A DNA stretch of 64,000 bases from Pecten maximus. Taxonomy: Eukaryota. Positions within the stretch are counted from its first letter, which is position 1. The number at the start of each line of letters is the position of its first letter. This document shows, one piece after another, positions 29,840 to 40,490 of the stretch. The notes under the pieces are model-generated. The model was not told the DNA's origin, did no database searches, and saw only the letters and a list, made by a program, of their open reading frames with translations. Made by a program: the position numbers and the translations under genes. The DNA lies in contig NC_047017.1 in the NCBI RefSeq assembly GCF_902652985.1, forward strand, positions 16,058,001-16,122,000. Reading direction: 5' to 3'.

Positions 29840-31430
29840 TCATCTGTAATTCTTTTTGTTTTCTTTCGTAAGTCTGGCCATCTCTTGCATGCCTTCAAAT
29901 AAGCCATCACCATTTCTCGCGCATGCTCCTTGAACGAACCACTTCCGTCCAGTCAGTTTCCCCAAACACATCCTGTCCGCTACCTCTGCCGTGTTCATGG
30001 CGTCTATAATGAACAAACGATAAATATTTGATTTATTCCAAACAAACAAAAATAAGAAAAATGTAAAGCCAAGGTATATTACTGTTTTTATGTAAAATAC
30101 TTCTTTATCAGAAAATTTAGCAATAGTTTGCATTAAATAAAGCTTACGTGGTAGATCTTGTTTGTTTGCAAACACAACAACCGGTACCCCTCTCATCTCA
30201 TCATTATCTAAAATACCGAACAGTTCCTCTCGGGCTTCATCGATCCTCTCTCTGTCATTGCTGTCTACGACAAACATTAGACCTGTGAAGCGAAAAATGG
30301 ACAGTATGAATGAAGAATCTCGCTAAACAAGTACACAAAATATAAGAATTGATATCAAATGACATCAGATGAAGCAGGAAACAAGTTTATTTAACAGTGA
30401 GCCCCATTTATTCGTTACTTGTTACAAGTCTCGAATATGCTACATACACCTTTATTTACATCATAAGTAAGCTACATACACCTTTATTTACATCAAAATT
30501 AAGAAATACTCAACTATAAACAACAAAGCGATATGTCCTTTCAAAAAATAAATAAAATTCAATTTAATAATGTTAATGCATTTTCTTGATATTGAAAAAA
30601 GGAAATCAACAACAACGACAAAGTATTCTATCATGTATACATATTAGTCTTTTGTTTGTTCTTTTTTCTTTATGTTATTTTTATCATTTTTTTTTTTTTT
30701 TTTTTTTCATTTCATTTTTTTCTCATTTACAAAACAGTTTTACCTTCTGTATTTTGGAAGTAGACTTTCCAGAGCGGACGGATCTTGTCCTGACCGCCGA
30801 CATCCCACACAGTGAAGGATACACCCTTACACGGGGACACCTCCTCTACGTTAAATCCGATCGTCGGGATTGTAGACACTTGCTCGTTTAGTTTGACTTT
30901 ATACAGGATCGTTGTTTTACCTGTTAAGAAATATTTAGACATTTGTAAAAGATCCTCTTCTGTTTTGACACTTGCGTTTAGAATGCTTTCCAAAAGACTG
31001 AAAATCTGAAAATATCACTGGAATGTTTGATGTTTGGCGACTATTCCGCTAGAATCATATGACACATCAATACATTTTCGTGCAACATTGTCGTTAAATC
31101 GTTTAAAGTATATAATATAAGAATGAGATTTTGTCACATTTGATGATGTTATGGTCAATTGTGATACATAATAAAATGAACATATGTGTACGGTAGGAAC
31201 TTCTGTGATATTGGTTATATAAGTCAAAAAGGTCTTCGATATATCCTGAATTAATCAATAAAAATTGATATGATGACTTGATTTTTATGCTTAGGTATTA
31301 GTAGATATATAATTCAAACATGCTACACCCAATTACCTGCCGCATCCAGCCCCAGCATCAGTATCCGGGATGGGGTTCCACTTGAGAAACTCTGCATCAC
31401 ATCAGCAAGCTTAGCTATTAATGCTCCCAT
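29840..31430 (-). CDS. ARF-family small GTPase, type A copy 1 (intact, 189 aa)
   Basis: Exons 31430-31337, 30920-30744, 30282-30148, 30003-29840 (570 nt). MG myristoylation start, [36 protein letters not shown]. Confidence 0.95.
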
Positions 31431-31496
31431 TTTGTTTCTTTTATATATGATATTTCTCAGTTACAATACTGCTATCGCGTGTTAGTCTTTTATATT

Positions 31497-31662
31497 TGTG
31501 TGCGGTCGTTGTAAATGTTCCATGTTTTATAGTGTTTCGGTTCCACGTATTTCACAAAGCCTGTACAGGGGTATGCAACACCCGACCTGTCAGCACAGCC
31601 ATACAGTCAATACCAGCGTGGAGAAAATTGCGTCACAGGTAGCTTTCATTCGGAATACCCGC
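31497..31662 (-). promoter_or_regulatory. Conserved ARF promoter block (A1)
   Basis: Inverted homolog of 32969-33126. TATAAAA (rc 31525-31531), AACCGAAAC (rc 31534-31542), TGACGCA (rc 31629-31635). Confidence 0.7.
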
Positions 31663-32896
31663 TTCGAACCAATGATAATGATAAAGTCCGAGAACCGTCG
31701 AGTGTGTCTATTTTTAGTCTAATGGTTGGGATTACCCTCGAATTGTCGTATCTACTGGATTGTCGCATCAAATGCGGTTTGTTTGTTATTTGTTTGTTGA
31801 TTTTTTCTGGGGGTTTTGGGGCGGAGGGAGGGGAGGGGGTGTTCTTTTTTCGCCATTTTTATCTTCTTGTAAAAAAAGACAATATAACTGGTAATAGGGT
31901 ATATGACACATTCTGGAATATATTTTGGGTTTACTTTTGGTACTTTCACCAACTGTCATAATTTATAAATTCGTCTTCCTTTATTTTGCTGACACGTCGA
32001 AAACGTTTTCCTACGTTGGCACAAACTCAGATGAAATACATGTACCTGAATTATTGTTTCACGAATTACTTTTTTATCTTCATTTAGTTCTTTGCTGAAA
32101 TGCATACACTTCAGTAAAAAATAATTTAAAAAAAAATTATTTGTGAATAAAATTGGATTTTTGGGACCAAATTACCATTTCCATACGTTTAGGTCGGGAC
32201 GAATATTCCCTATATTTCTAATGAGAGTTAATGATAATAACTAATACACAATCTCCGGTAGTTCTGGTAAAATATACAGTCTTTGATTTGTAAGACGACT
32301 GTTATATCTGGTATATTCTATAGCTTAAAAGACAAAATCAATACACCTCTAGTTTAATCTCACCATTAATTAGCTTTTGAGGTAAAATACAAGAATATTT
32401 ATAGTGGTTTAGATATTGAGGAGCAATACAGAACATTCCTAAGTTATCATGTACCGGGGTGAAATACCTGTACAATTTTATTAATCTTCGAAAATCATAA
32501 GCAAGCCATTTGTTTATTGTATATATATAGAGAGAGAAATTTGTGACGTTATCTTCGTTTCCAGCACTGTCTGGCCCTTCGATGTTTTTTTCTACAATTC
32601 ATAATAGCACTAGATTTAAAAATAAAACAGCCAAGGAAAATACGAAAACACCTTTTATCAGAAGTATTGATTTATGTATGTATCTAGGCTATATATAACG
32701 ATTAACGGGTTTCACGTCCGATAAATCACGGCCTTAAAACCTTTTAGCTGAAAAGATCATAAATGTAGGAAAGGTATACGCATATACTCAATCAGAGGTT
32801 TCAAAAGTATCAACAAGATATTAAAGTTATTTACGTGCATAAATGTATAAGCGTGGCCATATTTCAACTGGGTCGTAGGCAAGGTAAACAAACTTA

Positions 32897-37663: not shown

Positions 37664-38085
37664 AATAGAGGATATCTAACAGTGTCTTCAGTAATACCAA
37701 ATATATTTCACTCGGGAGGCTAATATTTTGATATTTTTCACTCGTGCTGCGCACTCGTGAAAAATATCAAAATATTAGCCCCCCTCGTGAAATATATTTG
37801 GTATTACTGAAGACACTGTTAGATATTCTGTTTATTACATTTTTTATCAACGAAAAACCTACCCCGTATGCTAACTAGGCCTAATTAAATAGTTTCCCCT
37901 GTCCAGGTGCTGACATATATGTCAGGCTTTCTGATTGGTCAATTATTTTGGTATTTTCTAATCATTAATTTGATTGGTCAAATCAGCAAAAGTGATATTT
38001 TTCATATGATATTTTTCACTAGTGAAAAAATATCACTTTTATAGAATGAATAATTCTTGATATTTCACTGGTAAAAATGTAATAA
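37664..38085. mobile_element. 422-bp palindromic non-autonomous insertion (possibly tyrosine-recombinase/Crypton type)
   Basis: Absent from the paralogous site (gttaatgataataactaat at about 32226-32244). ATAA at both boundaries. ~85-bp-arm hairpin 37662-37835. Right end aaaaatgtaataa is complementary to 37832-37844. Confidence 0.8.
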
Positions 38086-39060
38086 TAACTAATACACAAT
38101 CTCCGGTAGTTCTGGTAAAATATACAGTCTTTGATTTGTTAGACGACTGTTATATCTGGTATATTCTATAGCTTAAAAGACAAAATCAATACACCTCTAG
38201 TTTAATCTCACCATTAAGATAGCTTTTGAGGTAAAATACAAAAATATTTATAGTGGTTTAGATATTGAGGAGTAATACAGAACATTCCTAAGTTATCATG
38301 TACCGCGGTGAAATGCCTGTACAATTTTATTAATCTTCGAAAATCATAAGCAAGCCATTTGTTTATTGTATACATAAAGAGAGAGAGATTTGTGACATTA
38401 TCTTCGTTTCCAGCACTGTCCGGCCCTTCGATGTTTTTTTCTACAATTCATAATAGCACTAGATTTAGAAATAAAACAGCCAAGGAAAATACGAAAACAC
38501 CTTTTATCAGAAGTATTGATTTATGTATGTATGTATCTAGGCTATATATAACGATTAACGGGTTTCACGTCCGATAAATTACGGCCTTAAAACCTTTCAG
38601 CTATAAAGATTATAGATGTAGGAAAGGTATACGCATATACTCAATCAGCGGTTTCAAAAGTATCAACAAGATATTAAAGTTATTTACGTGCATAAATGTA
38701 TAAGCGTGGCCATATTTCAACTGGGTCGTAGGCAAGGTAAACAAACTTAGGGAATCCCCAGCGTAATATTAAAAATAGAAGCTATCGAAGTGTATCGGAC
38801 TTTATCCACATTGTTGTACTAGTGGGTGTTCCGAATAGAAGCTATAGCGTGACGCATTTTTCTCCACGTTGGTATTGAACATATGGCTAGAGTGACAGGT
38901 CGGGTGTTGCATACCCATGTACAGGCTTCGTGAAATACGTGGAACCGAAACACTATAAAACCTGAAACATTTACAACGATTGCACACATATCTAACGGAT
39001 CAGCACGCGATCTAACCTTGTATTATTTAAAAGCAGAGGAATATTTAACAGAGAACAAAA

Positions 39061-40490
39061 ATGGGTTTGTTATTGGCTAAACTCGCTGATGTGATGCAAA
39101 GTTTCTCAAGTGGAACCACCACCCGGATTCTGATGCTGGGATTAGATGCGGCAGGTAAATATTTTTTCATTGAAAATTGATCAATTTTAATTGTAAAATT
39201 ATGATAATACATGTATATGTCATTCCTAACTAACTCCTAAGTCTGACTCTTAGCATTCCTTTACAAAATCACTACAAGTACTTATTATTAAGTTGTTTTC
39301 TTAAGTTTTTATCATAAAAGATTTCTTTTTCCGTAAATTATATTTCAAATGTTTTATGTTAATTTCTACAGGAAAAACTACGGTCCTGTACAAGATCAAA
39401 TTAAACGAGAATGTATGTACCATCCCGACGATCGGATTTAACGTAGAGGAGGTGTCCCCGTGTAAGGGTGTATCCTTCACTGTGTGGGACGTCGGCGGTC
39501 AGGAGAAAATCCGGGCTCTCTGGAGACACTATTTCCAAAACACGGAAGGTAAGCTGTCTTTATGGTATATCTATGGAGCAGAGAATATAGATTTTTTTGT
39601 TTGATTGATTTTTGTTTTTGTTTTTTTTTTATTATCATTATTTTGATATAATTTTAGCTTCAATATTACTTGATCTCAACGGTAAGAATTGCTTACCGAC
39701 CTATTTGTTCTTTTGTTTTTAGTGCTTTCTTTAAAGAAGTATTAGATCAATATTTTTGGTATTGATAATGATATATAGGCCAGTCATTTTACACTTTGAT
39801 GAAATGAGACCTTTCAGACTGAAACATTTTTTTCTAAGTCTGATACAAATTCTATTATCTATTTCATCATGCATGATCTACACATTCTATTATTGGGTAC
39901 ATATTTTGAAACCTGATGAAATTAGATTCGCTATTGATTTCTTTATTATCTATTATCTTATCTCCCTTTACAGGTCTGGTGTATGTCGTGGACAGTAACG
40001 ACAGAGAAAGGGTCAATGAGGCCCGAGAGGAACTCTTCGGAATACTCGATAATGATGAGATGAGAGGTGTTCCAGTTGTAGTGCTTGCAAACAAACAGGA
40101 TCTCCCATGTAAGTTTAAATTGATAACAAAAGAGCCAGTTTTAGTTGGTATCTCGTTGATACCAATATATTAAAAAGCCAAAAAAAAAAAATCTTCAAAA
40201 TTCATTTCTCAAGTAGTTTCGTCATCCGGCATTCAAAATAAAAACAAATTCTATACTAACTGAAGAACTGTAGAAGGTATATGCATCATATGGCTTTGAA
40301 TTAACTATTGATATTTTTACTTATAGACGCCTTGAAAACGTCGGAAATAGCAGATAAGATGTGTCTGCCGAAACTTACCGGGCGGAAGTGGTTTGTTCAG
40401 GGAACATGCGCAATGACTGGCGATGGCATATACGAAGGCATGAAAGAAATGGCACGACTTGTGAAAGAAAACAAAAAGAACAACAGATGA
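39061..40490 (+). CDS. ARF-family small GTPase, type B copy 2 (intact, 189 aa)
   Basis: Exons 39061-39154, 39372-39548, 39974-40108, 40327-40490 (570 nt). MGLLLAKL..., [34 protein letters not shown] at 40961. Confidence 0.95.

Follow-up and report, generated by a model that had tools for sequence, protein, structure and literature searches.

The question raised by a 64,000-nt stretch of the Pecten maximus genome (assembly GCF_902652985.1, contig NC_047017.1, positions 16,058,001 to 16,122,000; hereafter the window) is to which family a cluster of head-to-head GTPase genes of the ADP-ribosylation factor (ARF) type belongs, and whether these genes respond to infection. The first-pass annotation of the window had proposed a lineage-expanded, pathogen-inducible ARF subfamily. 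We found that the two intact genes, A1 and B2, are new members of Arl19, a known but unstudied group, and that the promoter module lying in front of them is, at the sequence level, real and conserved. Pathogen inducibility can reasonably be inferred from the promoter sequences, and is better supported for NF-kB plus a factor binding the cyclic AMP response element (CRE) than for interferon regulatory factors (IRF). Taken as a whole, the reading in which A and B would be inducible by immune signalling via NF-kB and a CRE-binding factor, with possible IRF input, seems to us evenly balanced between right and wrong.

Five ARF-family copies lie in the window. A1 and B2 are intact, with four exons, 189 codons and GT-AG introns each (exons spliced into gene models), while A2, B1 and a relic are broken; the earlier count of five copies with three dead ones was thus borne out by spliced gene models and stops. 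The copies are:

29840 to 31430, minus strand: Arl19-A1, intact, 189 aa (exons 31430-31337, 30920-30744, 30282-30148 and 30003-29840)
39061 to 40490, plus strand: Arl19-B2, intact, 189 aa (exons 39061-39154, 39372-39548, 39974-40108 and 40327-40490)
33199 to 33681, plus strand: Arl19-B1, truncated, exons 1-2 only (33199-33292 and 33505-33681)
35009 to 36843, minus strand: Arl19-A2, broken by a CAA to TAA change at codon 87, in exon 2
16467 to 16784, minus strand: decayed relic of A type, comprising part of exon 2 plus the beginning of intron 2 and interrupted by stops

The A1 protein corresponds to XP_033734421.1 ("ADP-ribosylation factor 3-like" of Pecten maximus at NCBI) and the B2 protein to XP_033734420.1 ("ADP-ribosylation factor-like"). 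Exons 1-2 of B1, for which NCBI has a 108-aa model, show no difference from B2 over 271 nt. Besides its stop, A2 differs from A1 by six silent changes and one missense change, and in its intron 2 a 32-nt unit has grown to about 10 copies. The relic is 74% identical to A1 over 280 nt; its other exons were sought by tblastn and none was found. The head-to-head arrangement of A and B described at first pass stands, but each pair (A1-B1 and A2-B2) has one broken member, and the two intact genes, A1 and B2, lie at a distance of 7,631 nt. Similarly, the distance of about 1.8 kb from ATG to ATG holds for A1-B1 (1,769 nt) and not for A2-B2 (2,218 nt).

Arl19 is a newly recognised group named by Vargová in 2021, which predates the animals, ranges from Capsaspora to tunicates and has no vertebrate members (PMC8358228, here and below in its available part). 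It was placed beside Arl4 and Arf6, with Arl4 nested within or beside it. The published Arl19 table holds 42 rows from 15 species; scallops are not among the rows and, going by the species abbreviations, neither is any arthropod or nematode, whereas the planarian (nine rows) and the rotifer (eight rows) are multi-copy. The nearest relatives of A and B came from molluscs, annelids, rotifers, flatworms, brachiopods, echinoderms, corals, hydra and sponges, and the nearest matches included three curated Arl19 proteins of Capitella and Lottia (ELU16341.1, XP_009067075.1 and XP_009067077.1; PMC8358228 supplement). The Hydra relative was tied to a curated Arl19 by accession, the Nematostella one by sequence, by eye. 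A and B are 65-68% identical to the Capitella and Lottia Arl19 and 60% identical to Nematostella Arl19a.

In the phylogeny against the ARF and ARL families, an analysis already suggested at first pass, A and B fell with the curated Arl19 and not with ARF1, ARF4 or ARF6. The 13 Arl19 rows and the 9 ARF rows were split in 100% of 200 bootstrap trees, with a support of 88/93. A quick tree had 59 rows, the next dropped 11 near-duplicate or unnamed rows, and the bootstrap tree kept 24; all were built without Arl11/14 and TRIM23. The unnamed ARF6, ARF4/5, ARL4 and ARL6 rows carry presumptive labels based on characteristic motifs. Vertebrate Arl11 and Arl14 presumably have immune roles. An Arl20-like gene of the Pecten genome (so labelled by likeness to BflArl20a) grouped with the ARFs, apart from Arl19. 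When ARL4 was added, the support of the Arl19 side fell to 84/51 and this side took in ARL4, as in PMC8358228. Approximately unbiased tests (p 0.0004 and 0.00008) were left unused: they separated A1 and B2 from a 93%-identical ortholog, so that the rejection was trivial.

The comparison with class I-III ARFs agrees with this placement. A and B have the Pfam Arf domain and their best solved-structure matches are ARF1, and one intron lies at about the same place as in ARF1 and may be shared with it: intron 2 of A and B is near residue 91, where the ARF1 exon matches break. On the other side, A and B have three more N-terminal residues than ARF1, one more interswitch residue (12 residues from GFNVE to WD, against 11 in ARF1-6) and a longer basic tail. 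Their identity is 59% to the genome's ARF1 and 55% to its ARF6-type protein, and Pecten has its own ARF1 array and ARF4-/ARF6-like genes elsewhere (presumptive labels, from characteristic motifs). The earlier statement that A and B are not orthologs of ARF1-6 is therefore confirmed by the separate side of the tree, the 12-residue interswitch and the identity values. The longer N-terminus, the SPCKG interswitch and the basic tail, which had been taken as private features, turned out to be common to Arl19 as far as sponge and coral, and a lineage-specific ARF subfamily is ruled out: A and B are Arl19, older than animals. The extra interswitch residue is likewise shared with the group. As in Arl4, whose basic C-terminus targets the plasma membrane, a basic C-terminus has been noted for many Arl19 orthologues (bioRxiv 10.1101/2025.10.27.684887, available part); A and B are only 41% identical to the genome's ARL4-like gene, which is intronless and has a longer interswitch. 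No function or regulation is given for Arl19 in the available part of PMC8358228, and the promoter module is not described in the literature found naming Arl19.

Each of the four A and B copies has its own promoter block:

31525 to 31737, minus strand: A1 block, with near-kB at 31728-31737, TGACGCAA+TTTTCTCCA at 31635-31619, GGAACCGAAAC, and TATAAAA at 31531-31525
32897 to 33098, plus strand: B1 block, with kB GGGAATCCCC at 32897, TGACGCA at 32988, AACCGAAAC at 33081 and TATAAAA at 33092
36927 to 37145, minus strand: A2 block, with near-kB at 37136, TGACGCAA at 37043, AACCGAAAC at 36944, and TATAAAA
38750 to 38960, plus strand: B2 block, with GGGAATCCCC at 38750, TGACGCA+TTTTTCTCCA at 38850, AACCGAAAC at 38943 and TATAAAA at 38954

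All the promoter motifs named at first pass were found in the four blocks: AACCGAAAC-NN-TATAAAA at 33081 and 38943 (plus strand) and at 31542 and 36944 (minus strand), TGACGCA at 32988 and 38850 (plus) and at 31635 and 37043 (minus), the exact kB site GGGAATCCCC at 32897 and 38750 in B, and the near-kB site GGGATTACCC at 31728 and 37136 in A. The names kB, CRE and IRF stand for matches to consensus sequences, which we take as putative sites. The A and B blocks also carry CCACG and TACGTG boxes, and CCACG/ACGTG boxes presumably fit stress factors. The block had been described as about 165 bp alignable in inverted orientation; it is alignable, but over about 210 nt, which run from the kB site as far as the TATA box, and a weaker similarity continues to the ATG. 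Between the A and B blocks lies a 1.16-kb stretch without A-B alignment; one shared bidirectional promoter is ruled out, each gene having its own block.

Between A1 and B2, the stretch from CRE to TATA box is identical at 100 of 111 positions (90%), against 79-86% in the exons, and 25 of 70 four-fold sites differ. Introns, 3' untranslated region and the DNA beyond the kB site were at or near shuffle level (z 2.8 at most, A vs B against shuffles). The kB-like sites of A and B are one homologous site, and conservation ends there. The block is thus conserved far above the introns, as the first-pass annotation had noticed.

Two further members of Arl19, C and D, lie 16.5 Mb away (G000:C3:32,603,162-32,616,746) and share the three introns of A and B; D has a short N-terminus and NKSD instead of NKQD. 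In the proximal promoter the kB site is exact in B and has one mismatch in A, C and D. Paralog C, 61% identical to A and B, has GGGATTCCCT at -185, TGACGTCA+TTTTCTCC at -172, TGGAATCCCC at -152 and a TATA box at -81, so that its CRE element is flanked by two near-kB sites, the clearest such arrangement of kB, CRE and kB; a DNA search gave no match for this promoter. A CRE-element pattern, fitted after the sites had been seen, matched 20 times in 918 Mb (control 9), and five of these matches are at Arl19 promoters. An exact kB, CRE or AACCGAAA occurred in 0 of 12 regions upstream of ARF1 and Arl20-like genes, where the ARF1 control regions may not be promoters if non-coding first exons exist. 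Among 746 bins of 300 bp, which include the A/B promoters, 8 held an exact kB, 111 a kB with one mismatch and 26 a CRE-like site.

The sequence AACCGAAA occurred 11 times in 273 kb, four of them in the A/B promoters. It was also found once in 9 kb around the scallop viperin gene, about 230 nt before the ATG, and once in 10 kb before one of four IRF genes, which provides a small positive control. A and B thereby resemble viperin and other genes of the interferon-stimulated type, with a difference: viperin and the IRF gene have tandem GAAA cores, while A and B have one full core and a GGAA half. As a separate observation, the viperin 5' region (L215:7,460-7,530, G000:C11) packs a tandem GAAA element, a near-kB site and the STAT-like TTCCCTGAA into 70 nt, and one viperin exon was matched twice within the gene.

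Contigs assembled from RNA runs document a spliced B transcript. Spliced B joints were present in the contigs of four of four runs, with all three introns in three of them; A exon 4 was covered in three of the four runs, and no A joint was among the rows listed. Run contigs are silent on level, strand and start. A lead from Nematostella bears on induction (PMC8713801, Dataset S1 and text in their available parts). There, the gene 116619636, "ADP-ribosylation factor-like", rose with 2'3'-cGAMP by log2 4.1 in polyps (adjusted p 1.5e-35) and by log2 2.2 in embryos, and NF-kB knockdown lowered it by log2 2.2. No other of the 15 ARF-named rows responds as strongly, and none of the others is on the NF-kB sheet; the 98 cGAMP-induced, NF-kB-dependent genes include an ARF-like gene. 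A second gene, 5509745, "ADP-ribosylation factor", was up by log2 1.2 in embryos. IRF knockdown left the cGAMP induction unaffected (PMC8713801). Nematostella Arl19a has the NCBI name "ADP-ribosylation factor", and in our judgement 116619636 is somewhat more likely than not to be an Arl19.

The duplication history determines how many independent promoters the four blocks represent. The interval 28,967-34,097 (unit 1) recurs as 34,133-39,965 (unit 2) with 94-97% identity, so that the four promoters amount to two independent copies, doubled by a young tandem duplication. The features of this part are:

34098 to 34132, no strand: duplication junction, about 35 nt of filler
37665 to 38081, no strand: insertion of about 420 nt in the A2-B2 spacer, with a 91-nt-arm palindrome at 37657-37841
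about 30,800-30,870 and about 39,430-39,500: 68-nt run identical between A and B

The duplicated unit spans all of A but just exons 1-2 of B, and B1 is cut by the junction right before the exon-3 acceptor; B1 was therefore truncated at birth. The net gain of the duplication is nil, one A and one B being still intact. The spacer insertion is likely a repeat of the miniature inverted-repeat transposable element type; contigs of RNA runs cover it at very high depth, which identifies it as a repeat spread through the genome.

Unit 2 could instead be a second allele assembled in tandem with the first, or the duplication could be polymorphic among animals, in which case the species would have one A-B pair, and only the relic and a null allele would be left of the three dead copies. 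A divergence of 3-6% between the units lies within the range found between run contigs and the window (7/443, 8/161 and 5/147), the differences between A1 and A2 are mainly silent (6/8), and the B1 and B2 exons are identical, all of which would fit alleles. Against this, the window contains no N anywhere and the junction filler matches neither flank, which argues that the duplication event is real, and related scallops also have several adjacent copies (e.g., LOC132547781, LOC132547784 and LOC132547785 in Ylistrum). We consider these alternatives unlikely, and retain a young tandem duplication.

On a wider scale, scallop A and B formed one clade (100/100), with the A lineage common to four scallop genera, and the Arl19 copies of oysters (93/88), mussels (98/91) and clams (100/97) each clustered on their own. 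By this topology, tandem growth of Arl19 occurred repeatedly, and separately, in oysters, mussels, clams and scallops. These own clades, together with the broken copies in the window, bear out the birth-and-death evolution proposed earlier; what does not survive of that proposal is the lineage-specific subfamily, the genes being Arl19. At the coding level purifying selection dominates: A1 and B2 differ by a non-synonymous rate (dN) of 0.094 and a synonymous rate (dS) of 0.72 (dN/dS about 0.13, from a single pair), and A and B are 88-95% identical to their orthologs in two other scallops. Compared with ARF1, Arl19 has diverged more quickly: from scallop to sponge or coral, its identity is 62-64%, against 88-89% for ARF1. 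Tandem arrays are also found outside Arl19, with 8 tandem ARF1 and 4 tandem Arl20-like genes in the Pecten genome. In Argopecten, three "isoforms" of one annotated gene (P0204-P0206) do not agree in several of their exons, and they probably represent tandem B paralogs that annotation has merged.

Over the 68-nt identical run, A and B have no silent change in 22 codons of exon 2 (switch I and interswitch). This run is likely a trace of gene conversion between the inverted A and B copies, and therefore part of the promoter identity may be homogenisation. The agreement among the four promoters is inflated by the young duplication and by the likely conversion.

Several observations weigh against the immune induction of A and B. 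As just mentioned, A-B conversion could inflate the promoter identity, the kB site of A carries a mismatch, and the ARF1 control regions are possibly non-promoter. The generic IRF core AANNGAAA was present in 288 of the 746 bins and in 11 of 12 control regions; being at background level, it was dropped as evidence. Compared with a tandem interferon-stimulated response element (GAAANNGAAA), GGAACCGAAAC had one mismatch, a level reached in 167 of 746 bins; it is absent in paralogs C and D, and the rare AACCGAAA is common to viperin. The juxtaposition of IRF site and TATA box was not enriched genome-wide (5 matches vs 7 in the reversed control; 37 vs 39 with a looser pattern), which rules it out as a genome-wide rule; the other exact match, on C18, has no ARF-family match in the surrounding 10 kb. 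Paralogs C and D are without AANNGAAA, and D also lacks the CRE and has near-kB sites only. One coral-like Arl19 promoter has a CRE, with no kB within one mismatch and no AACCGAAA. In a related observation, this intronless coral-like gene has a divergent neighbour at a distance of about 400 nt, in head-to-head orientation, and the two share a perfect CRE that lies in between (L050:1,450-2,000).

The expression data add further points on the same side. The B2 region was found in 20 of 24 listed runs from 9 studies, which fits basal expression; the other 4 shared almost no words with it, which is no evidence of absence. In two of four runs, contigs extend past the B TATA box by 32-62 nt on its upstream side, which makes a start site at this box tentative. 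The Nematostella genes 116619636 and 5509745 are candidates for Arl19: accession order, with two calibration points, did not tie them to XP_032240484.1. ARF names without a number often belong to Arl19 at NCBI, but also to an ARF1 model (P0009), and ARF4, ARL1 and ARL4C also rose by log2 1.5-1.7 with cGAMP (available part of PMC8713801). Among the name-matching rows of the oyster data, where Arl19 may be listed as "uncharacterized", three ARF-named genes of the poly(I:C)/OsHV-1 immune table changed by less than log2 0.8 and were not assignable to Arl19 (available part of PMC7064767), and the OsHV-1 proteome had no Arl19-sized ARF entry among 9 name matches (available part of PMC7848083). Searches of full text for the accessions gave no match, and searches by topic, in titles and abstract openings, revealed no link between Arl19 and immunity, nor did the available parts of PMC13619432, PMC10776947 and PMC13319465; these searches did not extend to supplements.

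What the module would otherwise be for can be weighed on the same elements. It could be a general stress or secretory-load promoter (of CREB3, ATF6, XBP1 or HIF type), or a tissue-specific one, with the kB- and IRF-like sites incidental; Arl19 would in that case be under regulation, though pathogens as such would not be what drives it. The deepest conserved element is indeed the CRE with TTTTCTCCA and not the IRF site, the coral-like promoter keeps a perfect CRE and CACGTG without kB, and the CCACG and TACGTG boxes of A and B point the same way; CREB3 and ARF4 are linked in Golgi stress. However, the conserved block of B is bounded by an exact kB, to which a near-site in A is homologous, C has two near-sites, and AACCGAAA is rare and common to viperin; we regard a stress or tissue-specific promoter as possible and rather doubtful. 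That Arl19 is a constitutive traffic GTPase, whose A/B promoter likeness comes mainly from conversion between the inverted copies, appears quite improbable. The 68-nt run, the low dN/dS, the presence of the B region in runs of 9 studies and the tandem arrays of ARF1 and Arl20-like genes would be expected from it; conversion cannot account for the presence of the element in paralog C, whose protein is 61% identical and whose gene is 16.5 Mb away, and Arl19 diverges faster than ARF1.

The repeated separate expansions in four bivalve groups, and the differences between A and B in the switch II region, would also suit direct defence effectors or arms-race decoys, e.g., copies diverting microbial proteins that need host ARF. 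Purifying selection and the high ortholog identity among scallops, the intact catalytic motifs, the two broken copies left by the newest duplication and the absence of any relative in the viral contigs searched make this role very improbable. Induction through NF-kB and a CRE-binding factor is the reading that we retain, at the even balance given above. Its extension, in which Arl19 would be an NF-kB-inducible immune GTPase of ancient origin that persisted from cnidarians to molluscs, multiplied repeatedly in filter feeders and disappeared from vertebrates, is proposed tentatively, and falls short of that balance.

The proteins are compatible with a role in membrane traffic. A1 and B2 keep the GTPase motifs GLDAAGKT, PTIGF, WDVGGQ and NKQD, Gly2, and the tails KENKKNNR and KENKKNYR. 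In a redundant set of Arl19-type proteins, the catalytic Gln was present in 218/218, Gly2 in 203/218, and at least three K/R in the last 10 residues in 185/218; an N-terminal Gly for myristoylation is scored "yes" for most Arl19 rows (PMC8358228 supplement). The N-terminal stretch is amphipathic, like that of ARF1. The predicted model is of ARF type, with an N-terminal helix at 2-14 and the extra residue in the 56-70 hairpin; the mean predicted local distance difference test score is 77, and only 50-60 over that hairpin.

By analogy with established ARF biology and the available part of bioRxiv 10.1101/2025.10.27.684887, the protein would be myristoylated and would release its N-terminal helix on GTP loading, the basic tail would draw it to anionic plasma or endosomal membranes, and there, like Arf6 and Arl4, it may recruit coat or actin regulators. 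Each gene's own promoter module would make it inducible via NF-kB and a CRE-binding factor, possibly with IRF input. Infection signals would then raise the Arl19 level and could give activated cells extra traffic capacity for uptake and secretion, so that Arl19 would act as a regulated traffic switch and not as an antimicrobial enzyme.

Since its naming in 2021, when it was put forward as a candidate for study, Arl19 has seldom appeared in the literature searched; this locus gives a concrete and cheap hypothesis on its function, with exact promoter sites to mutate. If the hypothesis is true, the old NF-kB/STING response of marine invertebrates would gain a membrane-traffic switch, an ARF-family branch having no function would receive a first one, and bivalve immunity would have a marker gene that at present goes by names such as "ADP-ribosylation factor-like" or "ARF1_2". 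Should it prove false, what is left is an ordinary pair of Arl19 genes whose duplication failed.

In the wider searches, 1 of 80 loci of the metagenome scan was Arl19-type, no relative was found in the viral contigs searched, and the search of representatives returned mostly ARF1-type proteins. Elsewhere in the Pecten genome, eight tandem ARF1-type genes, apparently complete, lie at G000:C15:26,068,000-26,141,000, and some of these tandem genes are fused in NCBI models into double-ARF proteins (P0009, P0014 and P0019); such fused models also occur in corals, sponges, echinoderms and clams. Four tandem intronless Arl20-like genes, all without the catalytic Gln, lie at G000:C1:12,545,000-12,560,500, and one of them reads WDIGGRG, against WDVGGQD in ARFs.

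Other features were found in the window around the cluster:

19,696 to 22,480, plus strand: exons of a trypsin-family protease gene
42,483 to 56,346: gene with PA and transferrin-receptor-like dimerisation domains, presumably an M28 peptidase of NAALADase type
60,776 to 61,159: start of a paralog of the PA-domain gene (77% DNA match)
5,684 to 8,957 and 62,915 to 63,848: retroelement fragments (RVT_1, zf-RVT) and a Tc1/mariner-type transposase in two frames

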